Source: an uncultured Alphaproteobacteria bacterium (lineage in GTDB: Bacteria; Pseudomonadota; Alphaproteobacteria; Rs-D84; CACZYB01). Taken from it: DNA of 32,000 nt. The translations under genes and the position numbers were made by a program. Each line of letters begins with the position of its first letter. Position 1 is the first letter of the stretch. The stretch lies in assembly GCA_934246625.1 (NCBI GenBank), contig CAKQHZ010000001.1, positions 600,001-632,000 of the forward strand, written 5' to 3'. Of the stretch, positions 6,244-32,000 are shown one piece after another. The notes under the pieces are model-generated. The model searched no databases. It was not told the origin of the DNA and saw only the letters and a program-made list of their open reading frames with translations.

Positions 6244-6286
6244 ACTTGGAATTATAACATAAAATAAATTGTATGAAAAGGCTTTT

Positions 6287-6889
6287 TTAAAAATTGTTGA
6301 TTTCTTTTAATGCGAGTTTTATAAGGTCGTTCATTTCAATGTTTGGAGTTTTGTTTATGATTTTCATAACTGTTTCAAAACTTTGAGAACGAGTATAGCC
6401 AAGGTTTGATAATGCAGAAATTGCATCTTCGGCAATAGTGTTTGGCTTTATTGTTTTGGTAATTGTTGAAAGTTCAATGTTGATATTTGTTTTTGCAACT
6501 TTGTCCTTTAGTTCGGTAATAATTCGTTCAGCAGTTTTTTTACCTATGCCATTTGCAGTTGTGAAAATTTTTGCATCACCTGAAAGGATTGCTGTTGATA
6601 TTTCGTTTGGGGTTAATGCAGAAAGAATTGCAAGTCCAGCCTTTGGACCAATTCCCTGAACTGTTGTTAAAAGGTTGAAAAATTCGTGTTCGGAAGATGT
6701 TGAAAAACCGTAAAGTGAGATAGAATCTTCGCGAACAATTGTTTCAATAAAAAATGTTGCAGGAGAACCAATAGAAAGAGATGATAAAGTTTTTTGTGGG
6801 GCGAAAACAAGATAGCCTACACCATTGACATCTAATATTAAATTGGTGTCTGAAATTGTATCAATAATTCCTTTTAATTTTCCAATCAT
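6287..6889 (-). CDS. ruvA: Holliday junction branch migration complex subunit RuvA
   Basis: MIGKLKG..D....L.LDVNGVGY start, helix-hairpin-helix GIGPK and GIGKKTAERI motifs, about 200 aa. Confidence 0.9.
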   Translation of the reverse strand: MIGKLKGIIDTISDTNLILDVNGVGYLVFAPQKTLSSLSIGSPATFFIETIVREDSISLYGFSTSSEHEFFNLLTTVQGIGPKAGLAILSALTPNEISTAILSGDAKIFTTANGIGKKTAERIITELKDKVAKTNINIELSTITKTIKPNTIAEDAISALSNLGYTRSQSFETVMKIINKTPNIEMNDLIKLALKEINNF

Positions 6890-6902
6890 ATTTTTGCCTT
6901 AG

Positions 6903-9176: not shown

Positions 9177-9227
9177 AGATTGAATTATAACATATTTGTA
9201 AGGGTGGGTCAAGATAGTTTTGATATA

Positions 9228-9251
9228 TAAAAAAACTCCCCGAAGGGAGTT
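9228..9251 (-). terminator. Intrinsic terminator for the 9308..10564 gene (minus strand)
   Basis: AACTCCC-cgaa-GGGAGTT hairpin (9234-9251). On the minus strand a T-run follows (complement of the A-run 9228-9233). Confidence 0.55.
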
Positions 9252-9307
9252 TGTTATTTTATGAACTTGGAGTTTCTTCTGTAGTTCCAGTTTCAGAAGA
9301 AGGATTT

Positions 9308-10564
9308 TTATTTGATTTTGTTTTCTTTTCTTTTCTTTTCTTCTTTCTTTTTTGCTTTTTCTTCTTTCTTTTTTGCTTTTTCTTCTTCTTTTTTAGCTTT
9401 GTTTTCAGCTTTCTTTTCATTTATGCAGGTAGTCATCCAAGTTTCTTTGAATTTTTCAGTATGAGAGCTTCTTTCTTCTACAGTATATTGACTTTCATAT
9501 TCGCTTTCACAAGCCTTTGTCTTTGGTCCCCGAGTTTCTTGGATTGATTTTACCATACCATCTTTTTTATATTCATTGGTTGAATTTGTTCCAGTGAATA
9601 CAGATACTTGGTCAGTTATATGATCAGCAGCACCCTTTAGGATACCTTTTTCTTTGATTGCTTTTTCAAGACTTGAAGTTTTATCAACAAGAGCAAAATT
9701 TGTATCGTAAAGTTCTGTGTATCTGTCTGGACCACACATTACATTACCTGTTGATTTTAAAGAGTTCACAAGTTGAACAAGTTCACGTGGATATTCAGAT
9801 GTGGTATTTTCACTAAAATCTAAGTCTGCAAATTTGCCAGCTAGTGCGGTCCAATTCCAGTTGCTCATCTTTCCAACACTGCTGAAAATTTTTGTTAAAT
9901 CATTACCGTTTAAAGATGATGGGATTGTGCTATCATCTCCTGCAAGTTGTTTATAATAATTTCTTACAGCGTCAGTGTTGCAAGCATTTGTATCACGGTC
10001 TTCCCATGCGGCACCTTGATTTTTTGTGGCAAGAATATTTCTATAGCATGCTTCTGCTGCAAGTGAACGAGCAAGAGCCATATTACAATTTTGTTCATTA
10101 AGGTTTGCAACGGAGTCATAGCTGTTCCAAAGTTTATTTACTGCGGTTTCAATAAAGTTTGCACAGTATGTTGTTCTGTATGCTGATGGAATATCTGATG
10201 TGCCACTAAGATTTGCATCATCTGTGCCACTAAGATTTGCATCATCGAATTCCAAAATTGCGTAAGTTTCAGTTGCATTTTTACATTTGTTTGTGCCTGT
10301 GCATTGTTTCTTTAATGCATTTACTATCATTTTTGTGCATTCACGTTCGGCTTGCTTGTCTGTGATTGGAGCAATGCTTGTGTATGCAGTTTTTGATGCG
10401 ATTGTGTCAGCAATACTTGCATTCACAGTGGTTGTTGTTCCTGTGACATTTACATTTTGAGTTCCACGAGAACGTATAGAATTTGCACGTCTGTTTCTTG
10501 AGGCATAAGTATCACTTCCAAAAAGTGTTAGAATACTTGCTAAGACTGCTAATTGTTTTTTCAT
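9308..10564 (-). CDS. Secreted Cys-containing protein, paralog family member B, with K/E-repeat tail
   Basis: Signal peptide MKKQLAVLASILTLFGSDTYA, a basic stretch (SRNRRANSIRSRG) and a T-rich linker. Conserved module: YCANFIETAVNKLW ... YPRELVQLVN ... FALVDKTSSLEKAIKEKGILKG ... DQVSVFTG. The C-terminal tail is KAKKEEEKAKKKEEKAKKKEEKKRKENKIK. Confidence 0.7.
   Translation of the reverse strand: MKKQLAVLASILTLFGSDTYASRNRRANSIRSRGTQNVNVTGTTTTVNASIADTIASKTAYTSIAPITDKQAERECTKMIVNALKKQCTGTNKCKNATETYAILEFDDANLSGTDDANLSGTSDIPSAYRTTYCANFIETAVNKLWNSYDSVANLNEQNCNMALARSLAAEACYRNILATKNQGAAWEDRDTNACNTDAVRNYYKQLAGDDSTIPSSLNGNDLTKIFSSVGKMSNWNWTALAGKFADLDFSENTTSEYPRELVQLVNSLKSTGNVMCGPDRYTELYDTNFALVDKTSSLEKAIKEKGILKGAADHITDQVSVFTGTNSTNEYKKDGMVKSIQETRGPKTKACESEYESQYTVEERSSHTEKFKETWMTTCINEKKAENKAKKEEEKAKKKEEKAKKKEEKKRKENKIK
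9340..9381. repeat. Perfect 21-bp tandem repeat x2 (cttctttcttttttgcttttt) inside the K/E tail coding region
   Basis: 9340-9360 and 9361-9381 are identical. They are flanked by a (ttttc)x4 run at 9321-9340 and a degenerate third unit after 9382. Confidence 0.8.
10200..10247. repeat. 24-bp in-frame tandem duplication (encodes DDANLSGT twice)
   Basis: gtgccactaagatttgcatcatct (10200-10223) is followed by gtgccactaagatttgcatcatcg (10224-10247), 23/24 identical. Confidence 0.85.
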
Positions 10565-10582
10565 AATTTTCTCCTTAAACTT

Positions 10583-12055
10583 TTATTTTGTTATTTTTTC
10601 GTCTGTTATTGATACAGAAGTAGATTCATTTCCATTTAGCATAAGTTTTAAAACTGATGCAGGTAAATTCATATCTTCATTATAATTTACAGTGGAATAG
10701 CTGTAATCGTTTGTATTGTTTGTTAAATCAATAAATCTATAATTTTTAGATGTTGAAATAATTATGTATCGTCCTGTTGCAGGCTTTTTTGATACAATTA
10801 TATTTTTGATTGTGTCAGTTGTGATTTCATCATTGTCAAGTTCAAGTGTTTGAATGTTATCTCCAACTTTTACATCGGCGTCCTTTGTCCCGCCAACAAT
10901 ACCTTCACGTTTGATTTTGTTAATTGTATTTTCACCCATAAATACTGATGCTTGGTTCATAGCCCAGTCAGATGCACCCTTTATGCTTCCACTTTCATCA
11001 ATAGAACGTTGAAGTGAAGATTTTTCAGATAAAAGTTGTATGTTTTCGTCGTGTAGGGTTGCGCTGTATTCACTTCCACAATTTATTGAAACTTGGTTTA
11101 AGTAGGTGTTGTTTATTTTTGTAATATCACGTTCCCATTCGTCGGTTTTATCTGTGATTTTTCCATCAAGCCATTTGCCGACAAGGTCAACACCATTTGC
11201 AACACCTGATTTTCCAGCATTTACATATAAATCAGGAAGGTTTGAAGGAAATTGTATATTTGATGGAGCATTTGTTCCAAAAAGTTTTTCGTATTGTGCG
11301 TTGATTCCTCCAACACCACAAGTATTGTTTAAATCACCTCTTATTGCATTAGTTGCACCTGCAGCCTTTCCAGTTGATATTACAAGAGCAAAACATTCAG
11401 AAGAGGCATTTGCAACGGCACGAGCCTTTTTACAAGCGATTGAGTTTGAACCAGTTATTTCATATTCGGTTGCGATAGATTTCATAAAATCTTCGGTATA
11501 ACTATAGCAAACATCATCATATTTATATGACTTGCCATTTGTAAAGATGTGTAATTTGCTTGTATCGAATAGTGCAAAAAGTTCGTTGGCATCATAGCAT
11601 TTATATTCGTCGTTATTGTCGCCACCCTTTCCGTTATGAGCAAAAGAGTCTTCGCATCCTGCAGATACTGCCTTTATAAGGACATTTCCACATTCCTTTT
11701 TAAGTGCAATAATTGTATTTGTATTTTTAGCTATACATTTTGTTTTATCATCAGGATTTACGACAAGATTATTGTCTTCGCAAATACAATTATTTTTTGA
11801 ATCCTTTTTTTGACCAGTAGGGCATGAAAATGGACCTATGTCTGTTTTACCGCTGTTAAGACAATTTAAGTCCCCAGGGTTTGCACATTTTTTTATTATT
11901 GTTTTTGAAGTAACCAACCCAATAGAATTTTTTTTATCAACAGCTTTTGCAGAAGCCTGTTTCATAGCACGTTCACGACGTGCAGAAAATGAAATATTTG
12001 GAAGTGTTAGTAAAACACTAATCAATGCAATTTTGTTTATATTTTTATTTTTCAT
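10583..12055 (-). CDS. Secreted Cys-containing protein, paralog family member C
   Basis: I prefer the ATG at 12055 (MKNKNINKIALISVLLTLPNISFSA, preceded by AAAGGAA) over the track start at 12112. A basic stretch RRERAMK follows. Family module: CYSYTEDFMKSI ... CGSEYSATLHDENIQLLSEKSSLQRSIDESGSIKGASDWAMNQASVFMGE. Confidence 0.7.
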   Translation of the reverse strand: MKNKNINKIALISVLLTLPNISFSARRERAMKQASAKAVDKKNSIGLVTSKTIIKKCANPGDLNCLNSGKTDIGPFSCPTGQKKDSKNNCICEDNNLVVNPDDKTKCIAKNTNTIIALKKECGNVLIKAVSAGCEDSFAHNGKGGDNNDEYKCYDANELFALFDTSKLHIFTNGKSYKYDDVCYSYTEDFMKSIATEYEITGSNSIACKKARAVANASSECFALVISTGKAAGATNAIRGDLNNTCGVGGINAQYEKLFGTNAPSNIQFPSNLPDLYVNAGKSGVANGVDLVGKWLDGKITDKTDEWERDITKINNTYLNQVSINCGSEYSATLHDENIQLLSEKSSLQRSIDESGSIKGASDWAMNQASVFMGENTINKIKREGIVGGTKDADVKVGDNIQTLELDNDEITTDTIKNIIVSKKPATGRYIIISTSKNYRFIDLTNNTNDYSYSTVNYNEDMNLPASVLKLMLNGNESTSVSITDEKITK

Positions 12056-12232
12056 TTCCTTTAATCTCTCTATAATATCTTTTAATATAACATTTTTTTT
12101 GACTTTAATCAAATAAAATAATTATTTTTCTTTTTTTGGAATAAAAACTTGATATTTTATAAAAATAGAGGTAAAACTATAGACAATTTGTAAATTAAAG
12201 ACTTTTAAAACATAAAAATATAGGAGTTTATT

Positions 12233-12817
12233 ATGGTTGGTAAAATTTTAATGCCTAAGGCAACAGCAGTTTGGTTGATTGATAATACAGCACTTACTTT
12301 TGAACAAATAGCTGATTTTTGTGGTATGCATACATTGGAAGTTCAGGCTTTGGCAGATAGAGAATCAACAGATTATATCGTTGGTTTAAGTCCTATATTA
12401 AATGGTATGCTTTCAAAAGAAGATATTGAAAAATGTGAAGCTGACCCAAATGCTCGTCTTGTTTTGAATAAGCATTCAGAAGAATTTATCAAAAAAAGTC
12501 ATGAAGTAAAATCAAGATATACTCCTATGGCTCACAGACAAAACAGACCAGATGCTATTTTGTGGCTTGTTAAAAATCACCCTGATATTTCAGATGCTCA
12601 AATTTGCAAACTTGTAAGAACAACAAAAGCAACAGTTCAATCTATTCGTGAAAGAACACATAAAAATATGGCTGAAATAGTTGCAAGAAATCCTGTGCTT
12701 TTGGGAATTTGTTCTGAATTTGATTTAAGTAAAGCTATTGAAGAATCTGAAAAGAAAGCTGTTTTGGCTGAAAAAAGATTAAAGAAGGCACAAGAAAAAG
12801 CACAAAAAGAAGGTTAA
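12233..12817 (+). CDS. DUF1013-family protein (annotated in alphaproteobacteria as cell-cycle transcriptional regulator TrcR, from memory)
   Basis: LMPKATAVWLIDNTALTFEQIADFCGMHTLEVQALAD matches my recollection of the highly conserved DUF1013 N-terminus. TAGGAG RBS lies before the ATG at 12233. Confidence 0.75.
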   Translation: MVGKILMPKATAVWLIDNTALTFEQIADFCGMHTLEVQALADRESTDYIVGLSPILNGMLSKEDIEKCEADPNARLVLNKHSEEFIKKSHEVKSRYTPMAHRQNRPDAILWLVKNHPDISDAQICKLVRTTKATVQSIRERTHKNMAEIVARNPVLLGICSEFDLSKAIEESEKKAVLAEKRLKKAQEKAQKEG

Positions 12818-18233: not shown

Positions 18234-18309
18234 GGGTGTTTAGCTCAGCTGGTAGAGCAACTGACTTTTAATCAGTGGGTCACAGGTTCAAGTCCTGTAA
18301 CACCCACCA
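18234..18309 (+). tRNA. tRNA-Lys (anticodon UUU), CCA encoded
   Basis: Hand-folded cloverleaf. Acceptor GGGTGTT/AACACCC, D arm GCTC-AGCTGGTA-GAGC, anticodon arm ACTGA-CTTTTAA-TCAGT (anticodon TTT), variable loop GGGTC, T arm ACAGG-TTCAAGT-CCTGT, discriminator A, then CCA. Confidence 0.9.
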
Positions 18310-18343
18310 AAAATCAAAAGGCTTCCGAAAGGGAGCTTTTTTT
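18301..18343 (+). repeat. Direct repeat copy 1 (tRNA-Lys 3' end plus terminator)
   Basis: cacccaccaaaaatcaaaaggcttccgaaagggagcttttttt. The 27-nt core aaaaggcttccgaaagggagctttttt is identical at 18316-18342, 24422-24448 and 31940-31966. Confidence 0.9.
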
Positions 18344-18345
18344 AT
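18318..18345 (+). terminator. Intrinsic terminator after tRNA-Lys (also the core of the thrice-repeated att-like sequence)
   Basis: aaaGGCTTCC-gaaa-GGGAGCttttttt. Stem with one G-T pair, GNRA loop, 7-T run. Confidence 0.7.
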
Positions 18346-18870: not shown

Positions 18871-19401
18871 ATGTTTATTAAATTAAAAAAATATATAACA
18901 GATATTTTGGAATCTATTGAAGAATATCCATTTTTCTTTTTTTGTTTTTTTCAAATAATTTTTTTTATTTGGTTTTATAAGATACCGTTATTACATAATT
19001 ATATTTATAAATTAATTACTCCTAGTGAAATCTACAAGGATATAATAACTACAATAGCATCTTTTGATGGAATATTATACTCTTTATTTTTTACTGAATT
19101 TTTGAGTAAATATAAGGAAATTGGTCAAATATATTCTGATAACAAATATGTTATGAAAAAAATAAAAAAAATAATTTTGAAATTTACTTCACTGGTTTTA
19201 TTCAATTTTATAGTAGCTTTATTTTGTTTACATAAGTTTGATAAAGATTTATTTATTGACGCAAAATATATGTTTATATTATTTTTGAATTTTGCTTTTG
19301 TCGTTACTTTTTACTATTTAAATTTTGGAAAAATGAATAAAATGTATTCTACTAAATATCTTATTGAAGGTTTAAAGGAGAATATTGATGAATATTTTTA
19401 A
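18871..19401 (+). CDS. Small multi-pass membrane protein (orphan)
   Basis: There are 3-4 hydrophobic segments (FFFFCFFQIIFFIWF, ITTIASFDGILYSLFF, LVLFNFIVALFCL, FILFLNFAFVVTFYYL). The stop overlaps the next gene's start by 14 nt. Confidence 0.5.
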   Translation: MFIKLKKYITDILESIEEYPFFFFCFFQIIFFIWFYKIPLLHNYIYKLITPSEIYKDIITTIASFDGILYSLFFTEFLSKYKEIGQIYSDNKYVMKKIKKIILKFTSLVLFNFIVALFCLHKFDKDLFIDAKYMFILFLNFAFVVTFYYLNFGKMNKMYSTKYLIEGLKENIDEYF

Positions 19402-21445
19402 AAAGAATTATAATAATTATTATGAATATATAGATAATTTATTAAAAATATTTGAAAATTCTGTAAAATATTTTTATACAAGTAAAAATTCTTTGGTAAT
19501 TACTGATGAAACATTTAAGGAAATTTTATCTAAAATAATAGATATATATAAGAAAATTTTAAATAGCCCTAAAAAAGAATTGCATTATAAAGAGACAAAA
19601 ATTAAAGATGATGTAAATTCGAACTTTTATATTCTGTTTAACCAGGATCAGTATATTGAAACTGTTAAGATTTTAAAAACAATATTTGATATATACCAAT
19701 ATTTATGTGATAATAATGATAAAGATTTAAAAGAAAAAATTCATTATACAATATATGATTTATTACTTTTTTCTTCATCGAAAGAAGATAATCAAGCCGA
19801 GGTCAATTATATATTGGACCGATTATTTTTATGTATGTTGTCTGATAAAAATACATTAACTATTTATTATAATTTTTACACAATTGTATTCGATAGATTC
19901 CGACAAGAAAAATTTAATAATATATATTTAACTTCATTTAATAAATATGCTTTAAATATTTTAAAGCACCTATTAGATATAGATAACATGAAAGCTTTTA
20001 AATGTGTCGTAGATATTTCAATAAATAAATCTATGGATATTTATGATTCATACGGGGAAAATATAGATAAATTAAAAATAAATAAATTTAGAGAATTATT
20101 TTTAAAAACTACTTCTTTTGCTTTATATAAAAAAAATTATGAAGCTTTAGATATTCTATTTAATTTTCATACCCCAAAAGATTACACTGTTTTCTGGGAG
20201 AATAAAGATATTTTACCACATTCTTTAAAAGAAGTTTTTGAATGGGTATATAATAACAATATATGGGTAGAAGAATTAGAAGATCATCATGGTATAGCAT
20301 CTTATTACGAAAAATTAATATATTTATTAATATTAAGAGCTTTATATAATAACAATAATATTAGTAAGGATACTATAAATTTAAGAGATTTAGAAAATAT
20401 TAATTTTTCAGATTTACATAGAATACAAAAATTTAATTTAAAAGCATTAAAAGATTTTCATCCAAATACGAAATATAATGAGAAGGATTTAGAACAATCC
20501 GAAAAAGAGGTTCTTTCTGTAGTTAATGATATATTTAACAATAATAAGTTATTGGATATTATTGGCATAAATGAAGATAATATAGATAAAATTAAAAATG
20601 AATTTATTGACGCTTTAAAGATAATTTCAAAATTAGCCAATGAAATGGAAATAAATATCATAAAAAAATCACAATGCTCAAATGAAAAAATAAATAATGT
20701 AAGAAACGAAATATTTAAAAATTATCAAAAAAATAATAATTTATTATCAATATTTAACCAATATAATTTGATTTCAAATGATTATTATAATAATTTTGAC
20801 ACTTCATATATTGGTTATAATGTAGCCCTTTCTAAAGAAATATTCATTGACAATTATGGGGTTTCATTTGTCGGTATGGAAGCTGATTTTTCAGAAGGAA
20901 TATATCGAAGAGAGAATTTAATAATATTAGATGAAGTCAGGAAAAAAGTTCAGCAAAAATATTTAGAAGATTTGGAAAATGTAATAACTAAAAGTGAAAA
21001 TAAAGAAGATTTATTTATTATTTTAAATTATGCTGATTTATTTAATTTAAGATCATTACAAAAAACAATGAATATAACATTAAAGGATAAATATCTATTT
21101 TCAGAAGAAGAAAAAAATACATATAAAGAATTTAATCTAAATAATTTTGTTGGTATTTTAATGTGTAATAATATTTCTATTCCTGTCTACTCTTGTTTTA
21201 TGGGAGACAATAAGTCACAATTGTTTTTATTATCAAAAAATAGAGAAAAATTTGGAAGTGTCATAGAATATATATATAATGGTGAAGATAAAGAATATTT
21301 TGATGAACAAACAAAGTTATTCTGTAAATTATCAGAATTTGAAGATAAAAAAAGAGTTTTATTACAATTATATAAGAAAATAGATATTAATCTATCTGAT
21401 AGTTTTGAAGGATATATGATATCGTTAAAAGATACAGTATACTAG
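19388..21445 (+). CDS. 685-aa orphan protein, N/K/I/Y-rich, no recognisable motif
   Basis: Long uninterrupted ORF in very AT-rich DNA. AAGGAG (19375-19380) lies 7 nt before the ATG at 19388. It is translationally coupled to the upstream membrane protein gene. Confidence 0.6.
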   Translation: MNIFKKNYNNYYEYIDNLLKIFENSVKYFYTSKNSLVITDETFKEILSKIIDIYKKILNSPKKELHYKETKIKDDVNSNFYILFNQDQYIETVKILKTIFDIYQYLCDNNDKDLKEKIHYTIYDLLLFSSSKEDNQAEVNYILDRLFLCMLSDKNTLTIYYNFYTIVFDRFRQEKFNNIYLTSFNKYALNILKHLLDIDNMKAFKCVVDISINKSMDIYDSYGENIDKLKINKFRELFLKTTSFALYKKNYEALDILFNFHTPKDYTVFWENKDILPHSLKEVFEWVYNNNIWVEELEDHHGIASYYEKLIYLLILRALYNNNNISKDTINLRDLENINFSDLHRIQKFNLKALKDFHPNTKYNEKDLEQSEKEVLSVVNDIFNNNKLLDIIGINEDNIDKIKNEFIDALKIISKLANEMEINIIKKSQCSNEKINNVRNEIFKNYQKNNNLLSIFNQYNLISNDYYNNFDTSYIGYNVALSKEIFIDNYGVSFVGMEADFSEGIYRRENLIILDEVRKKVQQKYLEDLENVITKSENKEDLFIILNYADLFNLRSLQKTMNITLKDKYLFSEEEKNTYKEFNLNNFVGILMCNNISIPVYSCFMGDNKSQLFLLSKNREKFGSVIEYIYNGEDKEYFDEQTKLFCKLSEFEDKKRVLLQLYKKIDINLSDSFEGYMISLKDTVY

Positions 21446-21645: not shown

Positions 21646-24009
21646 ATGATAAAAAAACACTTATCAGAAATCAAAGAGTTAATGCAAGAATGGGATTATG
21701 AAGCTAATAAAGATTTAGATCCTACAAAACTTACTGTTGGTAGTAAAGAAAACGTTTTATGGAAGTGTTCAAAATGTGGTTATCATTGGCATGCTATGAT
21801 TAATAGGAGATATAGTAATCATACTGGATGTCCTGCATGTGCAAATAAAGTATTTGCAAAAGGGTATAATGATTTAGAAACAATATATCCAGAAATAGCA
21901 AAAGAATGGCACCCAACAATGAATGGAAATTTGACTCCAAGTGATGTTAAACCAGCAAGTCTTAATCGTGTATGGTGGTTATGCCCAATTTGTAATAATG
22001 CTTACCAAAAAAGAATTATGGATAGAGTAAAAAAGGGATCTAAATGTAATAAATGTTGTGATCCTAAAGTAATACAGGGAAAAAATGATATTGCTACAAA
22101 ATTTCCAGATTTATTAAAGGAATGGAATTATGAAAAAAATTATCCATTTTTACCACAAAATTTTTCTTATGGAAGTACAAGAAAATTTTGGTGGAAATGT
22201 TCAAAATGTAATTATGAATGGATGGCTACAGCTTTAAATAGAAATAATTCAGGTTTTGGATGCCCAGTATGTAAACAATCTTCTGGTGCAATAAAAGGAT
22301 TAACAGATTTAGGAAAAACACATCCTGAACTAGCTAAAGAATGGGATTATGAAAATAATAAAAATCTAACACCAGAACAAGTTAAAGCAGGTTCAGGAAA
22401 AAATGTATGGTGGAAATGTCTTAAATGTCATTGCTCCTATAAAACACAAATAATTGCGAGAGTTAAAGGCAGAGGTTGTCCGAATTGTAAAGATACAGGA
22501 GTTGTAGATGGATTTAATGATTTTCAAACATTATATCCAAATCTTGTAAAAGAATGGCATCCAACAAAGAATACTAAAAAGCCAAATCAAATAAAATCGA
22601 AGTCTAAGTATAATGCTTTTTGGATATGTCCAACATGTGGATTAGTTTGGCAAGCACCTGTGGTAAGTCGAGTTGTCCAAGGGAGAGATTGTCCTGCATG
22701 TAATGATACTTCATTAGTTCCTGGAGTTAATGATTTAGCAACAAAATTTTCTGAAATTGCAAAAGAGTGGCATTCTACTAAAAATGGAGATTTAACTCCA
22801 AAAGACGTAAAATATGGAAGTCGTAAAAAAGTATGGTGGAAATGTTCTGTATGTAGTAAAGAATGGGAAACAACTATTGATAGTCGAACAAGACAATTAT
22901 CTGGTTGTCCTCGATGTTTAAATTCGAAACAAACATCATATCCAGAACAAGCGATTTATTATTATGTTCAACAAATATATCCAGATGCTATTAATAAATA
23001 TAAAGCTGATTTTTTAGGAAGAATGGAACTAGATATTTTTATTCCATCAATTAATTTTGCAATTGAATATGATGGTGAAGCTTGGCATAGAGAAAATAAG
23101 CGTTCAATGGAACAAAGAAAATATAAACTTTGTCAAAATAAAGGGATTAAACTTATAAGAATTAGAGAAAAACTTACATCTTTAGGTTGTGAAATTTCTG
23201 ATGATCAGATAGGTATTGTTAAATTAAATGGTAAAAATAGTTTGGAAGAAACAATAAAATATTTAATTAATAAAATTAATTTTACAGGCAAAAATATTCA
23301 TGTCGATTTAATAAATGATGAAATGTTAATTCGTTCATTATGTCATGGGAATCCTAAAGATTCTTTAGAAAAATTATTTCCAGAATTAGTTTGTGAATGG
23401 CATCCAACATTGAATAAAGATTTGAAACCTGAAAATGTATCATGTGGATCTAATCTAAGAGTTTGGTGGCTATGCCCTAAATGTAGCCAATCTTACAAAG
23501 CATCTATTAATCATAGAGTAAAAAGTAAATCAGGTTGTCCGGTATGTTCAAATAGGAAAGTAGCAACTGGAATTAATGATTTATTTACTACAAATCCGGA
23601 TTTAGCTAATGAGTGGCATCCAACAAAAAATGGAAGTTTAACACCTCATGATGTTACATATGGTTCAGGCAAAAAAGTTTGGTGGTTATGTCCTAAATGT
23701 AAATATGAATGGTTTCAAAGTGTAAATAGAAGAACTTCGATGAAATTAGGTTGTCCTTGTTGTACGGGAAAAAAATTAATAGTTGGTAAAAATGATTTAG
23801 CAACAGAATGTCCAGAATTAGCAAAAGAATGGCATCAAACTAAAAATGGAAATTTATCTCCAAAAGATGTAAAAGCAGGAAGTCATTTCCCTGTATGGTG
23901 GAAATGTTCTGTATGTGGTAATGAATGGAAAACAGATATTAGGTCAAGAGTAAAAGGACGGAAGTGTCCTAATTGTTCTAAAAAACAATTAAAACTAGAT
24001 TTAAAATAG
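21646..24009 (+). CDS. Nine-fold zinc-ribbon repeat protein with central Vsr/DUF559-like PD-(D/E)xK nuclease domain
   Basis: Nine repeats of about 70 aa follow the pattern EWH.TKNG.L.P.DV..GS..KVWW.C..C..W...I..R.....GCP.C. Six precede and three follow a core at about 22936-23170 (ELDIFIPSINFAIEYDGEAWH...QRKYKLCQNKGIKLIRIRE). Confidence 0.8.
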   Translation: MIKKHLSEIKELMQEWDYEANKDLDPTKLTVGSKENVLWKCSKCGYHWHAMINRRYSNHTGCPACANKVFAKGYNDLETIYPEIAKEWHPTMNGNLTPSDVKPASLNRVWWLCPICNNAYQKRIMDRVKKGSKCNKCCDPKVIQGKNDIATKFPDLLKEWNYEKNYPFLPQNFSYGSTRKFWWKCSKCNYEWMATALNRNNSGFGCPVCKQSSGAIKGLTDLGKTHPELAKEWDYENNKNLTPEQVKAGSGKNVWWKCLKCHCSYKTQIIARVKGRGCPNCKDTGVVDGFNDFQTLYPNLVKEWHPTKNTKKPNQIKSKSKYNAFWICPTCGLVWQAPVVSRVVQGRDCPACNDTSLVPGVNDLATKFSEIAKEWHSTKNGDLTPKDVKYGSRKKVWWKCSVCSKEWETTIDSRTRQLSGCPRCLNSKQTSYPEQAIYYYVQQIYPDAINKYKADFLGRMELDIFIPSINFAIEYDGEAWHRENKRSMEQRKYKLCQNKGIKLIRIREKLTSLGCEISDDQIGIVKLNGKNSLEETIKYLINKINFTGKNIHVDLINDEMLIRSLCHGNPKDSLEKLFPELVCEWHPTLNKDLKPENVSCGSNLRVWWLCPKCSQSYKASINHRVKSKSGCPVCSNRKVATGINDLFTTNPDLANEWHPTKNGSLTPHDVTYGSGKKVWWLCPKCKYEWFQSVNRRTSMKLGCPCCTGKKLIVGKNDLATECPELAKEWHQTKNGNLSPKDVKAGSHFPVWWKCSVCGNEWKTDIRSRVKGRKCPNCSKKQLKLDLK

Positions 24010-24023
24010 ATTTAGAAATTTTA

Positions 24024-24057
24024 ACTTCATAGTTTAGGATTATGCAAACTATGAAGT
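24024..24057 (+). terminator. Possible hairpin terminator after the zinc-ribbon nuclease gene (no clear U-tract)
   Basis: ACTTCATAGTTT-aggattatgc-AAACTATGAAGT, a perfect 12-bp stem. Confidence 0.35.
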
Positions 24058-24368
24058 ATAAGCAATAATCATATCCAAATTATAGTAACCAAGAACTTCT
24101 TTCTATATTTTTTTTAAAGCATGATTTACGACAGTTGCAAAATTTGCAGTTATCGAGTTTTCTGCAAATTAGCCATCATTAAAGTGGAAAACTAGTTACG
24201 AATGGTATAGGATTAGTATTCTCCCAACCAAAATAGAGAATTTTAGAAAATTTGAAAAAAAATGATGAATATGGTAAAACACTAAGAAAACTCTATATTG
24301 GAGCAGTTTTCGAGAATAGTTATGAATGGTATAGGATTAATATATAGTCGAAATGGATTGACCGATTT

Positions 24369-24448
24369 CTGCGGTTTAGAAATTGTTCGGGAATGGATAT
24401 AAACCCCCCACCAAAAATTCAAAAAGGCTTCCGAAAGGGAGCTTTTTT
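24369..24448 (+). repeat. Direct repeat copy 2: degenerate tRNA-Lys 3' fragment plus exact terminator copy (att-like junction)
   Basis: ctgcggtttagaaattgttcgggaatggatataaaccccccacca resembles the tRNA from the anticodon arm to CCA. It is followed by aaaattcaaaaaggcttccgaaagggagctttttt. Confidence 0.8.
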
Positions 24449-24693
24449 CTTTGCCTATAGACCCTAGATTCTTCCTAGTGTAATAATTAGAGATAATCTA
24501 TAAGTTATTTAGAAATTTCTTTTTAAGCATTTTCTCTCTATTCTCTATGCTTTATCCGAAGAACGCCTTATGTATTTGAATATACTTAATTTTATAACTG
24601 CGGATACAATAGAAAAGTTGTAGAAAATCTGTGGAGTAGCAAAAAGTATCAAAAAACTAGCTTATGATCTACAGTTTTAAAGGTTTATTTTCC

Positions 24694-27663: not shown

Positions 27664-27734
27664 TGAAAAGATAAAGAATAGTATTTAATCCATCTTTTCA
27701 GTTAATTTCTTTATCAAAGCTATATGCTTTTTTA

Positions 27735-28640
27735 TTACAAAAATTCTTTTATCAACTTTGGCAAAAGTTTATTTTGTTTCTTGCTTCCATGACCAAAACT
27801 ATCAATAATATGCAAAGTTGATTTTGGCATAGCTTTGTGTAAAGTATATGCCTGTTCAAGTGGAGTACAGAAATCCAATCTGTTACCAATTATAAGTGTT
27901 GGAATATTTTTAATTTTGCCAATATTTTCGATAATTTCATTTTCTTTTATAAAATAGTGTTCTGTATAGTAATGCATATAAATTTTAAAGGAATTAACTA
28001 CCTTATCCCCCAGTTCTTCATCAAGATTTATTTTTAACTTACCAATTTGATAATCATAGTTTGTAAGATATTTTACAGTCTTTTTAATTTTAGCATTACT
28101 TTGCTTAAATAAATTTTCCAAATCTTTGTGAGTTTTTATAAGATATGGTGAAAGTTTTTCAATTATGTCAGGGTAGAACATCTTTGAATCTTTGTATGTC
28201 CAATTTGCATCTTTCTTCCTTGCTAAGAAAGTTTGTGATACAATTATTTTATCAACTAATTCAGGGTATGTTTCTGCAAACAAAAGTGCAAGTGTAGAAC
28301 CCCATGAACCACCAAAAGAAATTACCTTTTCTTTTATATTAAGGAAATCAAGAATTCTTTTTGCATCTTTAATTGTATCTTGAGTGGTATTTTTATAAAA
28401 TAAATCTTTAAATTCAGAATTTCCACAACCACGTTGATCAAAAATAATTACTTTATAATTTTTGAGATTACAACATTTTACATATTTAAATTTACTTCTT
28501 GCTCCTGGACCTCCATGAAAATTTAAGATGGTTTTCCCATTTGGGTTACCAAATACTTGGAAGTAAATTTTATGTCCATCAAGTTCGGGAAGATATCCTT
28601 TAAAAATAGCCTTTGGCTTATGTGAAAATATATGAAACAT
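27735..28640 (-). CDS. pip: Proline iminopeptidase (S33 alpha/beta-hydrolase)
   Basis: HGGPGA oxyanion motif, nucleophile elbow GGSWGSTLAL, a C-terminal His (SFGHG), about 300 aa. Confidence 0.85.
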   Translation of the reverse strand: MFHIFSHKPKAIFKGYLPELDGHKIYFQVFGNPNGKTILNFHGGPGARSKFKYVKCCNLKNYKVIIFDQRGCGNSEFKDLFYKNTTQDTIKDAKRILDFLNIKEKVISFGGSWGSTLALLFAETYPELVDKIIVSQTFLARKKDANWTYKDSKMFYPDIIEKLSPYLIKTHKDLENLFKQSNAKIKKTVKYLTNYDYQIGKLKINLDEELGDKVVNSFKIYMHYYTEHYFIKENEIIENIGKIKNIPTLIIGNRLDFCTPLEQAYTLHKAMPKSTLHIIDSFGHGSKKQNKLLPKLIKEFL

Positions 28641-28706
28641 TCTATTGCCTTTTTTTAATATAATATATAATTATTAACATAATATATAATTATTTCAAGG
28701 TGTTAA

Positions 28707-29816
28707 ATGAATAATTATAAAGAATTTGTATCTGAAATTTCTTCTTTTTTTAATTTAGAAAAAGTATCTGGTGAATATTTCCGATTTAAAGATCAAAAAA
28801 ATATTAGTAATTTCCCTAAACAATCTATTCATGAATATTTTAATGATGTTCCATTAATTCCTGCGGATAATGTCATAAGAACTGATGATAGTACAACGCT
28901 TTTTACATGTGCTGGAGTGCAACATATAGAAACAATGATAAAAAATAATGAAATTTTAAAAGATTTTAGTATTTATCAACCATCTATAAGAACTCAGTTT
29001 ATTGGTAAAACAAAAGAAGGAGTTTCTACATCTTTTGTTAATTTTTCTTCAACTATATTTAATATTTCGAATGATAAATTTTTAGATAAAACAAAAAGTT
29101 ATATTTCTTTACTTAATAATTATGGATACAATAATAATGATTTATTAGTTAGATTTGAAGAAAGATCTAATGCTTGGGGAACTAAAAAATTTACTACATA
29201 TGTTGCTAGTTTATATTATAATAATTTTAGAATGGGAGAATGTATTTTTATGAAATATTTTCCCATAAATTCAAATCAAGTTTCTAATATTATGGAAGTC
29301 GGATTTGGTCTAGAAAGAATGGAATGGTTATCAAAAAAAAATAATTATTATTTTTCTAGATACAAAGAAATTTATGATCAATTTAAAAATAATGATGTTT
29401 CTATTGATCAAATTACAACTATCATTGATTCTGTAAGAACTTCAATCTTAATTGCTGGTAATGGAATAGTTTCAAGTAATAATAATCATGGATATAGATT
29501 AAGACAGTTATTAAAGCATTTTGTTTTTAATAATGCCAATATATCAATACCTTTAAATAAATTAGAACGAATAGCATATGATGAATGGAAATCTAATACA
29601 TTCGTTCAGTATGATAAAATATGTGATATTATAGGAAAAGAAGTTGAAAGAAATGAACATGCATATTTATTAGATTTATTAAAGAGGTGTAATATAAAAA
29701 CAAATATAGATATAACATTACCAAATGATGCTTTTATAAGATCTTTAAAAAGTCGTATTTATAGAGAGAATACAGACGTGATATTAGATAAATTATTTAA
29801 AGAAAAGGTTAAATAA
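28707..29816 (+). CDS. Stand-alone alanyl-tRNA synthetase catalytic-core homolog (class IIc aaRS-like, no editing or C-Ala domains)
   Basis: Collinear matches to E. coli AlaRS as I remember it. TLFTCAGVQH aligns with LLFTNAGMNQF, QPSIRT with QRCVR, VSTSFVNFSSTIF with HHTFFEMLGNFSF, MEVGFGLERMEWL with VDTGMGLERIAAVL, and IIDSVRTSILIAGNGIVSSNNNHGYRLRQLLKH with [33 protein letters not shown]. It is only 369 aa. Confidence 0.8.
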   Translation: MNNYKEFVSEISSFFNLEKVSGEYFRFKDQKNISNFPKQSIHEYFNDVPLIPADNVIRTDDSTTLFTCAGVQHIETMIKNNEILKDFSIYQPSIRTQFIGKTKEGVSTSFVNFSSTIFNISNDKFLDKTKSYISLLNNYGYNNNDLLVRFEERSNAWGTKKFTTYVASLYYNNFRMGECIFMKYFPINSNQVSNIMEVGFGLERMEWLSKKNNYYFSRYKEIYDQFKNNDVSIDQITTIIDSVRTSILIAGNGIVSSNNNHGYRLRQLLKHFVFNNANISIPLNKLERIAYDEWKSNTFVQYDKICDIIGKEVERNEHAYLLDLLKRCNIKTNIDITLPNDAFIRSLKSRIYRENTDVILDKLFKEKVK

Positions 29817-30488
29817 ATGGGAGCTCTAATTTCTGATTTTTTATCTTACAAGCATTCTGTTTATGATGAAATTTCTGATTTATCAAAAAAAGAGATAGAT
29901 AATTTTTACTCTTTTATATTAGGTGGTGTAAAATTTAATAATTCAAGTCCTAAACTTATTATGATGTTGGGTATTAGTGGAGCGGGGAAAAGTACATTTT
30001 TTAATAATGCAAAGCAATATTATAAAGATTATGCTTTTTTATCAGGTGATGAAATTATGCATAATTTACAAATTTTTAAAGAATTAAAATTATTAAATAA
30101 ATCATCACATAATGATTTTCGAATTTGTGAAACAATTTCTAGAAAGCTATCATTCTATATTTTAGATTATTTAATTTCAAATAAAGCAAATATTTTTTAT
30201 GATTGTGGAGGTTTGGATTTAAATAAAAAAAATATGGTTAGATATATAAGTGATTTGGGATATAAAATAGAAATTAATGCTATTCTAGCAGATAAAAAAA
30301 TTGCTATCGATAGAGTAATAAAACGTCATTATAAAAATGGAGGTGGTTATATACCAGTTGATTTAATTGAACAAAATTTCAATGAGGTTTTACCAGCTAT
30401 TAATTATTATAAGCAATTTGTTGATAAGATAAATATTTATAACAATAATAATAAAATTTTTTTAGAAGAAACTTATATAAAAAGATAA
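29817..30488 (+). CDS. P-loop kinase, zeta-toxin/AAA_33-like
   Basis: Walker A MLGISGAGKST sits about 50 aa from the N-terminus, with IFYDCGG as a Walker-B-like strand. The size (223 aa) and layout fit small-molecule or nucleotide-sugar kinases. The ATG directly abuts the upstream TAA. Confidence 0.6.
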   Translation: MGALISDFLSYKHSVYDEISDLSKKEIDNFYSFILGGVKFNNSSPKLIMMLGISGAGKSTFFNNAKQYYKDYAFLSGDEIMHNLQIFKELKLLNKSSHNDFRICETISRKLSFYILDYLISNKANIFYDCGGLDLNKKNMVRYISDLGYKIEINAILADKKIAIDRVIKRHYKNGGGYIPVDLIEQNFNEVLPAINYYKQFVDKINIYNNNNKIFLEETYIKR

Positions 30489-30498
30489 GGAGTTTTAT

Positions 30499-31749
30499 AT
30501 GGATATTTGTATTTTTAATTCAAACACTAATGTTAATGCACAAGATTATGAAGTCGTTGAACGTAAAGGTATTGGCCATCCTGATACAATCTGTGATACT
30601 TTAGCAGAAAAGATAAGTGCTAATTATTCTCTATATACATATCAAAAATATGGACATATATTTAGACATATGATTGATAAATTATCTATTTTAGGGGGAA
30701 AAACAAAAGTTTATTTTGGAGGTGGAGAATTTATAAAACCTATAAGAATACTACTAAATGGACGATTTACTGGAAACTTCTGTGATGAAAAAATTCCATA
30801 TATTGATATTGCTACAGAAACTATTTATAAACATATGAAATTCCTATTTCCTATGATAGATTGTAAAAAAAATATAGAAATAATAGATAATACGCATTCA
30901 TCGCAAGGTCCTGGTGTTGTATACAAAAAAGATGGAACAACGAATAATGAACGTTCTAGTTTTTTTAACATAAAAAATGAAGCATTTATGCAATATCATA
31001 ATAATATGAATAGAACAAATGATACATCTACTACTGTTAGTTTTTATCCATATACAGTTCTAGAAAATGTTGTGTTATTTGTAGAAAATCAATTAAATTC
31101 TGAAGAATTTAAAAAGAAGTATCCTTTTGTTGGTAACGATATAAAAGTAATGGGAACAAGAATTGGCAAAAACATAGATATTACAACTTGTATACCTTTT
31201 ATTTCTTTATATACTCCTGATAAAAATTTTTACAAAGACAATATAAGCTTTTTAAAAAATCTTTTAATCAATATGTTATCAAAAAAATATTCGGATTATT
31301 CTTTTAATATTTCTATAAATACAAGAGATAATTTAGAAAACGATGATTTATATTTAACATTAACAGGAAGTGCTGTTGAAAGTGGAGATGAGGGGGCCGT
31401 TGGACGAGGTAATAGAAGTTGTGGATTTATTCCTTTTTGCCGTAATGTATCTTTAGAGGCTCCGTGTGGTAAGAATCCTGTATATCATACAGGGAAGTTA
31501 TTTACTGCTATTGGAAATATTATATCTAATAGAATTTATAGCCAAACAGGCATTGAAAATACTGTTTATTTAACAAGTCAGATGGGGGGTAAAATAGAAG
31601 AAACTTGGAAGATTGCTATTGGTTTAACAAATAGTCCTTCTATTTCACTAGAATTAAAAAATACAATTGAAGATATTGTAAATGAAGAGTTAAAAAATCA
31701 TAATAAAACTACACAAGATATAATTTTGGAAAAGATAAAATTATATTAG
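30499..31749 (+). CDS. Archaeal-type S-adenosylmethionine synthetase (MAT) homolog
   Basis: VERKGIGHPDTICDTLAEKIS, NDTSTTVSFYP, GNDIKVMGTR, LYLTLTGSAVESGDEGAVGRGNR and GKNPVYHTGKLF are collinear with M. jannaschii MAT motifs as remembered (ERKGLGHPDSICD, NDTSFGVGYAP, GEDIKVMG, TGTSAEMGDDGSVGRGNR, GKNPVNHVGK). AAGGAG lies 6 nt before the ATG. Confidence 0.85.
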   Translation: MDICIFNSNTNVNAQDYEVVERKGIGHPDTICDTLAEKISANYSLYTYQKYGHIFRHMIDKLSILGGKTKVYFGGGEFIKPIRILLNGRFTGNFCDEKIPYIDIATETIYKHMKFLFPMIDCKKNIEIIDNTHSSQGPGVVYKKDGTTNNERSSFFNIKNEAFMQYHNNMNRTNDTSTTVSFYPYTVLENVVLFVENQLNSEEFKKKYPFVGNDIKVMGTRIGKNIDITTCIPFISLYTPDKNFYKDNISFLKNLLINMLSKKYSDYSFNISINTRDNLENDDLYLTLTGSAVESGDEGAVGRGNRSCGFIPFCRNVSLEAPCGKNPVYHTGKLFTAIGNIISNRIYSQTGIENTVYLTSQMGGKIEETWKIAIGLTNSPSISLELKNTIEDIVNEELKNHNKTTQDIILEKIKLY

Positions 31750-31886
31750 ATAAAATTTAATATACTTAAGATTTATTCCTATGAAAATAATATTAAGTGT
31801 AGGCTAAATGACTTTTTATAGATGAGTTTTTTATGGTTGGTTTCGGTTATCCGAAATAGATTAGAAACCTGTAGAATAGCAAAAAG

Positions 31887-31967
31887 ACTGACTTTTAGAA
31901 AAGTTAGAGAAAGGTTCACAATCACCCACTAAAAATTCAAAAAGGCTTCCGAAAGGGAGCTTTTTTT
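31887..31967 (+). repeat. Direct repeat copy 3: degenerate tRNA-Lys 3' fragment plus exact terminator copy (att-like junction)
   Basis: actgactttta matches tRNA 18260-18270, aggttca matches 18284-18290, and cacccac matches 18301-18307. Next comes taaaaattcaaaaaggcttccgaaagggagcttttttt, one mismatch from copy 2 over 39 nt. Confidence 0.85.
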
Positions 31968-32000
31968 ATTGTGTATCGGTCTAGATGATGGGTGTTGAGG

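Follow-up and report, generated by a model that had tools for sequence, protein, structure and literature searches.

We analyzed a 32,000-nucleotide (nt) stretch of DNA from an uncultured Alphaproteobacteria bacterium (contig CAKQHZ010000001.1, positions 600,001 to 632,000; hereafter the window, meaning the whole stretch) and characterized a compact cassette of four genes, ~4.1 kb in total, near its right end. The cassette encodes a truncated protein related to alanyl-tRNA synthetase (hereafter the AlaRS-like protein), a zeta/PezT-type P-loop kinase, an archaeal-type methionine adenosyltransferase (MAT) and, on the opposite strand, an alpha/beta hydrolase of the S33 proline iminopeptidase (PIP) family. 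These four genes are one mobile cassette, and their co-occurrence is not due to chance, since the same four recur in other assemblies. The cassette is a derived, mobile variant of a large, widespread and previously undescribed gene module. We tentatively propose, with a probability of about 0.4 for the full mechanism, that the cassette is biosynthetic and that its product would be an aminoacylated, possibly phosphorylated, small molecule derived from adenosine or S-adenosylmethionine (SAM).

Cassette features were located by open reading frame (ORF) coordinates and by reading the sequence. The AlaRS-like gene (28707–29816, + strand, 369 aa) encodes a class II aminoacylation core plus a helical domain and is preceded by an AAGGTG ribosome-binding site upstream of its ATG at 28707. 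Its TAA stop codon (29814–29816) directly touches the ATG at 29817 of the kinase gene (29817–30488, + strand, 223 aa), and the start of the kinase is predicted to be translationally coupled to this stop. The kinase gene ends with a TAA at 30486–30488, followed by a 10-nt gap before the ATG at 30499 of the MAT gene (30499–31749, + strand, 416 aa); an AAGGAG at 30487–30492 shares the last two bases of the kinase stop codon. Downstream of the MAT gene lies a conserved 3' untranslated tail (31750–31912, + strand), delimited by blastn homology with two related loci described below (L001 and L038/L039). The hydrolase gene (27735–28640, − strand, 301 aa, with no evident signal peptide) is divergent from the other three. 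The 66-bp, AT-rich spacer between it and the AlaRS-like gene (28641–28706) reads as a divergent promoter region and holds, besides the ribosome-binding site, a perfect 16-nt tandem repeat, ATAATATATAATTATT, with copies at 28660–28675 and 28679–28694 (19-nt period). This repeat is partly conserved in four related loci (L001, L009, L038 and L003) and may be an operator. A promoter scan gave scores no higher than those of shuffled sequence and is uninformative in such AT-rich DNA. The GC content is 0.22–0.27 at the cassette, compared with 0.30–0.39 in the core and housekeeping genes at 1–18 kb of the window. We read the AlaRS-like, kinase and MAT genes as one transcription unit, and we count the divergent hydrolase with them because homology between cassettes begins exactly at the hydrolase stop codon. 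A preliminary description of this DNA had reported the same four ORFs, the same gene junctions and the AT-richness, had treated the three forward genes as one packed unit and had suspected that the divergent iminopeptidase was relevant. Our ORF, GC and sequence checks agree with it on each of these points, and the recurrence of the four genes elsewhere and the boundary of homology at the hydrolase stop codon extend it.

The cassette genes are accessory and mobile. blastn comparisons placed the block, at ~89% nucleotide identity, in four genomic contexts with unrelated flanks. One relative lies on a 136-kb contig of an alphaproteobacterial metagenome-assembled genome (L001), with ~89% identity to window positions 27734–31831, flanked by DUF218 and outer-membrane/glycosyltransferase genes. 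L038 aligns to 27738–31912 and lies, like L039, among InPase, Fic and NUDIX-NrtR genes; L009 aligns to 27735–30463 and has an integrase, HipBA and a resolvase as neighbors. In the window itself the flanks are hypothetical genes of a low-GC island. Homology thus runs from the hydrolase stop codon to ~80–160 bp past the MAT stop, reaching 31831 with L001 and 31912 with L038/L039. The L009 relative (11111–12612) is 81% identical, has a kinase shortened by 10 residues and is missing the MAT gene between the kinase gene and an outer-membrane-protein gene that in L001 lies 3' of MAT. Ratios of nonsynonymous to synonymous substitution rates (dN/dS) of 0.10–0.35 across all four cassette genes (0.12–0.18 for the hydrolase and 0.10 for MAT) indicate purifying selection.

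The position of the cassette in the window also bears the marks of integration. A tRNA-Lys(UUU) gene occupies 18234–18309, and the low-GC island starts immediately after it; Rfam and tRNA scans of the window found nothing besides this tRNA. A direct repeat of ~45 nt, composed of the last ~10 nt of tRNA-Lys and its terminator hairpin (CACCCACCAAAAAT..AAAGGCTTCCGAAAGGGAGCTTTTTT), is present in three copies, at ~18300–18345, ~24405–24450 and ~31923–31972. This arrangement suggests two tandem tRNA-targeted integrated islands, at 18.3–24.4 kb and 24.45–31.9 kb, with the cassette at the right end of the second. The third copy, an att-like repeat (31923–31972, + strand) recognized by repeat comparison and a terminator scan that placed the hairpin at 31939–31966, probably marks the right border of the cassette-bearing island. 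No integrase gene is visible in the window.

The first protein of the operon has the fold of AlaRS but is not a canonical AlaRS by length or score, as judged from profile and predicted-structure comparisons. It matched Pfam tRNA-synt_2c slightly below the cutoff (E 6e-7; 28.8 bits, cutoff 30.3) and scored 24–31 bits against the NCBIfam models of canonical AlaRS, TIGR00344 and TIGR03683, whose cutoffs are 457 and 745. An AF2 model built from 28 homologues (pLDDT 88.8) was searched against the PDB with Foldseek, and the best matches were all AlaRS structures (3wqy, E 6e-14, TMq ~0.6), followed by GlyRS-alpha. The protein has neither an editing nor a C-Ala domain, and its helical domain matches the first part of the region with which AlaRS recognizes tRNA. 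Relatives are numerous: a word-indexed search found 7, and an exhaustive profile search gave 545 clusters (50% identity) at E≤1e-3, or 294 at E≤1e-10, nearly all of them 330–430 aa long. The family is well separated, with members scoring at least 337 bits in a family-profile search and canonical or short AlaRS at most 91 bits, among the 30 proteins returned. Source annotations call family members 'hypothetical protein' or 'alanyl-tRNA synthetase', and none of the matches is labelled AcmF. Three members are fused to other enzymes: a Peptidase_S51 (P0155), a GT1 glycosyltransferase (P0113) and a class-I SAM methyltransferase resembling TRM5/TYW2 (P0127). Two further AlaRS-like proteins, P0103 (708 aa) and P0156 (674 aa), carry extra regions. 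A scan of viral contigs with the family returned no relatives.

To examine the active site, we aligned 139 family members to E. coli AlaRS and used literature numbering. The arginines of motif 2 (R69) and of the motif 3 GxGxERx sequence (R243) are each present in 139/139 members, and W170 in 130. At the D235 position 126 members have Asp and 13 have Glu, the window protein among the latter, and G237 and E241 are kept as well, in the window protein too. Other positions have changed. N212 is replaced by Asp or Glu across the family (E178 in the window protein), W211 by Gly in 126 of the 139 members, including the window protein, and the motif-2 residues R85/H86/T88 read S/F/N in the window protein. 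E91 is Thr or Ser in most of the family (Ser here); most members keep E209, and only the window's clade has Arg at that position. We interpret this pattern as a pocket that appears enlarged and acidified, but in which the frame for binding adenosine and the acidic residue that contacts the alpha-amino group would be retained. Outside the pocket, a conserved helix, PSNxxHGYRLRQ, is the equivalent of the E. coli AlaRS tRNA-recognition motif, and the Asn of its PSN is kept. The LYDTYGFP region, which in AlaRS carries the Asp of the Asp-plus-Asn pair that reads the G3:U70 base pair, is absent, and with it the Asp half of the reader.

The MAT matched PF01941 over residues 9–410 (E 7e-100; 335 bits, cutoff 27) and aligned end to end with solved archaeal MATs (E ~1e-68; PDB 4hpv, 4e-68), while scoring 278–311 bits against the NCBIfam equivalog models, under their cutoffs of 435–577. 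The motifs GHPD (with the catalytic His), NDTS (Asn), DIKVMG, LYLT (with the stacking Tyr) and GDEG..GRGNR are kept. According to the residue roles published for TkMAT, the equivalents of H33, D201, Y271, D283 and N161 are all present, and the two residues that bind the methionine carboxylate, H62 and N64, are replaced by Arg and Met, turning HHN into RHM. The MATs of the module fall into two types on this basis: type A, with the archaeal HHN, and type B, which has RHM and includes the window protein. We take the window MAT to be an active adenosyltransferase, given its motifs, and its amino-acid substrate is probably, though not certainly, methionine. The preliminary description had asked whether the ligand residues of the two enzymes were retained, and the answer is divided: R69, W170, G237 and R243 of AlaRS and the catalytic set of MAT are kept, and W211, N212, the motif-2 residues and H62/N64 are replaced. 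We also considered whether the AlaRS-like E209-to-Arg change and the MAT H62-to-Arg change were specific adaptations to a substrate phosphorylated by the kinase, and rejected this for the MAT because RHM also occurs in loci that have no kinase (L030–L034 and L037); for the E209 change such an adaptation is conceivable. In seven loci (L059, L060, L075–L078 and L080) two MAT-like matches lie 5' of the AlaRS-like gene, and a duplicated or split MAT is possible there.

The kinase matched Zeta_toxin (PF06414; E 1.5e-14, 54.4 bits, cutoff 22.3) and AAA_33 (2.9e-6). It has a Walker A sequence, GISGAGKST, and three invariant residues, D78 (20 residues past the P-loop Lys), R166 and R170. Its AF2 model is of low confidence (pLDDT 60.6) and matched PezT/zeta first (E 3e-6) and AvrRxo1 next; we used these fold matches solely to corroborate the Pfam assignment. 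PezT and zeta kinases phosphorylate hydroxyls of nucleotide-sugars (the substrate being UDP-GlcNAc), and AvrRxo1 phosphorylates the 3'-OH of NAD. The gene upstream of the kinase is the AlaRS-like gene, and no antitoxin gene of the epsilon/PezA type is present. The kinase family is very small, with 6 members in 5.8 billion proteins; 4/4 contigs examined carry the module, and one of these kinases (L042, 49% identity) lies in an S51-MAT-kinase arrangement. A metagenome scan with the kinase alignment returned no relatives, and other P-loop kinases near related AlaRS-like genes are sporadic, unrelated and confined to L024, L036 and L097.

The divergent hydrolase matched the prolyl aminopeptidase model TIGR01249 below its cutoff (E 2.6e-63; 214 bits, cutoff 259.75), and its best PDB matches were Serratia prolyl aminopeptidase (1qtr, 2.7e-45) and Xanthomonas PIP (1azw, 2.8e-39). 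The Ser of GGSWG, an Asp and a His align with the catalytic triad. Relative to SmPAP, E232 is replaced by Tyr, E204 by Asp and Y149 by Thr; E232 is the ligand of the substrate amine in SmPAP. The sequence identifies the protein as an aminoacyl hydrolase of the PIP family whose specificity is uncertain. All four family assignments of the preliminary description were borne out: profile searches place the kinase, the MAT and the hydrolase, and the 369-aa protein is placed by a sub-cutoff Pfam match together with the AlaRS fold.

To define the wider module, we collected loci with AlaRS-like genes by a one-genome-per-species scan with a 28-sequence alignment, which gave 28 loci, and a metagenome scan, which gave 58 more. 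The ORFs of these loci were searched by phmmer and the loci collapsed to 63 non-redundant ones. The one-genome-per-species scan recovered Patescibacteria, Saccharibacteria, Alpha- and Gammaproteobacteria, Chloroflexota, Omnitrophota and Firmicutes; the 63 loci span many phyla, with Patescibacteria in the majority. An archaeal-type MAT lies within 5 kb of the AlaRS-like gene in 35/35 informative loci, and a Peptidase_S51 gene directly 3' of it in 46/51. Glycosyltransferases (GT; 30/43), PIG-L deacetylases (17/36) and inositol-3-phosphate synthase (INO1; 13/43) are frequent neighbors. A zeta-type kinase was found in 3 of 51 loci and a PIP-type hydrolase in 3 of 52, and among the 63 loci both are restricted to the window's clade. 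From these counts it follows that the conserved core is AlaRS-like plus MAT plus peptidase, and not the trio of AlaRS-like, kinase and MAT. The preliminary description had singled out that trio, whose genes do recur as neighbors in other assemblies; as a conserved unit, however, it gives way to an ancient core of MAT, AlaRS-like protein and S51, with the kinase and PIP confined to one small clade. A peptidase gene stands beside the AlaRS-like gene almost everywhere, as S51 or, in the window's clade, as PIP.

The commonest architecture is INO1-MAT-AlaRS-like-S51-GT-GT-PIG-L (for example L046–L053, L061 and L067–L072). A second consists of AlaRS-like-S51-Amidohydro_2 with MAT on the opposite strand, and some loci add a PHP (HisJ-like) phosphatase. 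The best NCBIfam matches of these partners were mycothiol-type INO1 (2.9e-125), PIG-L proteins close to MshB/Mca/BshB and, weakly, BshA for the GT. Neither the window cassette nor the relatives close to it contain INO1, GT or PIG-L. In one metagenomic lineage (L005, 391–5241, and L006) the module lies directly 3' of genes for a 1039-aa helicase-PLD-Zn-ribbon protein, an SLFN/AlbA_2 protein and a DUF5681 protein, in a setting that resembles a defense island.

The AlaRS-like protein and MAT are, on this comparative evidence, functionally linked because they are co-located almost universally across phyla. Their identity matrices are correlated (Mantel r=0.645), and 0/2000 permutations reached this value. 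The window offers an informative case of re-assortment: its MAT is 53–57% identical to other type-B MATs, whereas its AlaRS-like protein is 33–35% identical to the partners of type-A MATs and 25–27% identical to those of type-B MATs. A type-B MAT is therefore combined here with an AlaRS-like protein of type-A lineage, which argues that the pairing was re-established and not merely inherited. A literature search found no description of a combination of MAT, AlaRS-like protein and S51, and a search of PADLOC-DB 2.0 with all four cassette proteins returned nothing significant (best E 0.0013, to the P-loop only), in keeping with the remark in the preliminary description that it knew of no described system with the trio of AlaRS-like, kinase and MAT genes.

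The only characterized free-standing AlaRS-core paralogue that we could find is AcmF, reported in 2024 from the ascamycin cluster of Streptomyces sp. JCM9888/80H647; a 2022 review of paralogues of aminoacyl-tRNA synthetases (aaRS) lists none. AcmF has 370 aa, consists of the aminoacylation and tRNA-recognition domains alone, carries N219Q and D232E and is without most of the residues for activation of ATP and Ala. It moves Ala from Ala-tRNA(Ala) to the sulfamoyl nitrogen of dealanylascamycin, which is held in the adenylate site. Its product is cleaved by AcmE, an alpha/beta hydrolase encoded beside AcmF and 20% identical to Xanthomonas PIP, a weak similarity noted originally. The ascamycin-dealanylating enzyme of Xanthomonas is itself cited as a proline iminopeptidase.

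The observations above cover the genes, their linkage, their mobility and the selection on them, together with fold and residue patterns; from these we infer the catalytic steps, the acceptor and a biological role as follows. The MAT, whose catalytic core is intact, would locally produce SAM or a closely similar adenosyl-sulfonium compound. The AlaRS-like protein would bind an adenosine-containing acceptor, SAM or a derivative of it, in the former alanyl-adenylate pocket and aminoacylate it. As with AcmF, the donor would most likely be Ala-tRNA(Ala), without an adenylate formed by the protein itself; we propose this step because of the active-site changes and the AcmF precedent. The kinase might then phosphorylate a hydroxyl on the sugar of the intermediate or of the product, either within the pathway or for self-protection, a role proposed because of the substrates of the zeta/PezT/AvrRxo1 family. 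The PIP-type hydrolase, which would replace the ancestral S51, could strip the aminoacyl group in reversal, proofreading, immunity or activation, in parallel with AcmE and Xanthomonas PIP. In some fusions S51 occupies the place of the AlaRS editing domain, an arrangement that suggests that the peptidase proofreads or reverses the reaction. The product might serve as an antimetabolite, a signal or a surface component. The preliminary description had envisaged an adenosine-type small-molecule pathway in which the AlaRS core forms an aminoacyl-adenylate. Its pairing of an aminoacyl-nucleoside with a peptidase is backed by AcmF and AcmE, and its statement that a Xanthomonas iminopeptidase acts on ascamycin agrees with the citation above and with the pairing of AcmF with AcmE; the adenylate step itself has become doubtful, as N212, W211 and R85/H86/T88 are replaced and AcmF uses Ala-tRNA rather than ATP and Ala.

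Several observations weigh against this proposal. The AlaRS-like protein retains R69 and R243, and most of the family also retains E209; it could therefore still use ATP. No group of SAM is positioned to act as a nucleophile in the way that the sulfamoyl NH2 does in dealanylascamycin, which makes SAM as the acceptor speculative. At the N212 position, where the family has Glu or Asp, AcmF has Gln, which is not among the commonest residues of that column in the 139 members. The replacement of H62 and N64 by Arg and Met means that the substrate of the MAT may not be methionine, and the MAT-less L009 implies that this locus either can do without MAT or receives it in trans. Finally, the presence of INO1, GT and PIG-L in most relatives suggests an inositol-aminosugar acceptor over a nucleoside. 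A bolder form of our proposal, which we regard as doubtful, is that the AlaRS-like family would be a new class of enzymes that take SAM into the alanyl-adenylate pocket and aminoacylate it or transfer part of it, and would thus define a new family of SAM-derived aminoacyl or alkyl metabolites. The enzymes would be widespread in Patescibacteria, coupled there to inositol-aminosugar chemistry, and in the window's alphaproteobacterial lineage would have been repackaged with a zeta-type kinase and a PIP hydrolase into a mobile antimetabolite or signal cassette.

The same sugar and cyclitol genes are the starting point of a different explanation, in which the AlaRS-like protein is an ATP-dependent amide ligase that follows the logic of MshC in mycothiol synthesis: an acyl-adenylate of Ala, of a larger amino acid or possibly of SAM would be joined to the amine of an aminosugar-cyclitol, and the window would carry a reduced form of the pathway that depends on an acceptor produced elsewhere. 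The commonest architecture of the relatives and the mycothiol-type NCBIfam matches of its genes fit such a pathway, as do the PHP phosphatase in some loci, the AlaRS-like::GT fusion, the retention of R69, R243 and E241 (and of E209 in most of the family) and the W211-to-Gly change, which enlarges the amino-acid pocket. We nevertheless consider it unlikely: R85/H86/T88 are replaced, E91 is Thr or Ser in most members and N212, which binds the carboxylate in AlaRS, is gone; the cassettes of the window's clade have no INO1, GT or PIG-L; and it leaves the most constant partner of all, the MAT (35/35), unexplained. Another explanation is a conflict or anti-phage set, partly compatible with the biosynthetic proposal, in which a SAM-derived nucleotide signal or toxin would be made or depleted on infection, with the kinase as effector and the peptidase as reset. 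Its location in a tRNA-Lys-linked, low-GC island between att-like repeats would suit such a set, as would the neighbors elsewhere (integrase, HipA and resolvase; Fic and NUDIX-NrtR; SLFN-AlbA_2 and the helicase-PLD protein) and the growth-arresting kinases within the zeta-toxin family. We judge this improbable: PADLOC gave no significant match, the cassette contains neither a sensor nor a nuclease component, the viral contigs yielded no relatives, and most relatives lie amid sugar and cyclitol biosynthetic genes.

The remaining explanations look away from a small-molecule pathway. In a tRNA-directed system, the AlaRS-like protein would dock on tRNA(Ala), SAM would alkylate the acceptor end (with a methyl or 3-amino-3-carboxypropyl group) or otherwise modify it, and the kinase would act on RNA or a nucleotide, the whole being a toxin or a modification device. 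It could account for the top fold match, 3wqy, which is a tRNA-bound AlaRS, for the PSN..GYRLRQ helix, for the fusion to a TRM5/TYW2-like SAM methyltransferase and for the weak AAA_33/polynucleotide-kinase-like matches. The Asp half of the G3:U70 reader is absent, however, the peptidase, GT, PIG-L and INO1 partners suit small-molecule chemistry better, and the nearest kinases, PezT, zeta and AvrRxo1, act on small molecules; a tRNA-directed role therefore seems distinctly improbable. That the genes are coincidental neighbors, with the MAT serving as the SAM synthetase of the host and the others unrelated, could appeal to L009, where the MAT is missing. Synteny comes near to refuting this explanation: within the operon one gene touches the next or is separated from it by 10 nt, all four genes travel as a block from one context to another, MAT accompanies the AlaRS-like gene at 35/35 loci across phyla, and the two proteins co-evolve and the family has enzyme fusions.

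Before AcmF in 2024, no free-standing paralogue of the catalytic core of AlaRS was known. AlaRS-core proteins now emerge as a large family, almost always tied to a peptidase and to a SAM synthetase of archaeal type, and spread through candidate-phyla bacteria with tiny genomes and mobile islands of Proteobacteria. Should the proposed mechanism hold, the family would point to unexplored metabolites derived from aminoacylated adenosine or SAM, among them aminoacyl-adenylate mimics with antibiotic potential or new signals, and to a second role for aminoacyl-tRNA beyond translation. Being compact, the four-gene cassette offers a convenient experimental entry to the module.

Other features of the window lie outside the cassette. 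A 64–80-nt intergenic element at 24020–24103 is 90–92% identical to two sites in the related contigs L038 (4678–4741 and 5951–6030) and L039 (3706–3769 and 4968–5047). An inverted repeat, CTTCATAGTTT..AAACTATGAAG, lies inside this element, which is probably one of the small repeats dispersed in this bacterial lineage. Just upstream, 21646–24009 (+ strand) encodes a 787-aa protein with nine DUF4379 treble-clef zinc-finger repeats (Pfam E 8e-168) and a non-repeat insert near residues 470–560. The lowest GC content of the window (0.19–0.21) is at 18871–21445 (+ strand), where ORFs of 176 and 686 aa overlap and have no Pfam match. Between ClpX and RpoD, in the core part of the window, 4540–12112 (− strand) holds large ORFs of 567, 200, 769, 418 and 509 aa; the four that were scanned, of 567, 769, 418 and 509 aa, have no Pfam match at E≤1e-5.

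Each component of the cassette can be set beside a known system. In comparison with the archaeal MATs of known structure (TkMAT 4l4q, SsMAT 4hpv and PfMAT 6s83), the window MAT shares the catalytic His, the ribose-binding Asp residues, the Tyr, the Asn and GRGNR; it differs in being bacterial and mobile, in scoring below the equivalog cutoffs and in having the type-B Arg and Met at the ligands of the methionine carboxylate. With zeta, PezT and AvrRxo1 the kinase has in common the Pfam match, the Walker A sequence, the Asp ~20 residues after the Lys, two Arg residues and the nearest structures. Unlike zeta and PezT, it has no antitoxin gene, belongs to a family of six and is coupled inside an operon that looks biosynthetic.

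At the level of pathways, microcin C (MccB/D/E/F) is alike in concept, as a peptidase-controlled aminoacyl or peptidyl derivative of adenosine, and MccF and S51 are both Ser-His-Glu peptidases. The likeness is one of analogy only, as the cassette has no ThiF-like MccB and no gene for a precursor peptide, and its aminoacyl-transfer enzyme differs. Mycothiol and bacillithiol synthesis (Ino1, MshA/BshA, MshB/BshB and MshC) follows the same logic as the combination of INO1, GT4, PIG-L and an aaRS-derived enzyme in the relatives. The AlaRS-like protein, however, is a class II enzyme derived from AlaRS, whereas MshC is class I and derived from CysRS; MAT and S51 have no counterpart in mycothiol synthesis, and the window cassette is without INO1, GT and PIG-L.

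The ascamycin system is compared here through the published description of AcmF only. The cassette has no genes of the sulfamate pathway and no dedicated full-length AlaRS such as AcmD, and has instead a MAT and a zeta-type kinase. Its hydrolase, in which a signal peptide is not evident, differs from AcmE in being a true member of the PIP family. The AlaRS-like protein and AcmF are nonetheless close in several respects: they are nearly equal in length (369 and 370 aa) and truncated in the same way; both have the Asp-to-Glu change, and both have lost the pocket Asn, to Glu here and to Gln in AcmF; both are without the full Asp-plus-Asn reader of G3:U70; and both are encoded beside a hydrolase of the alpha/beta fold. 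The acceptor of AcmF is an adenosine derivative held in the adenylate site, the same site in which we propose that the AlaRS-like protein would hold its own acceptor.

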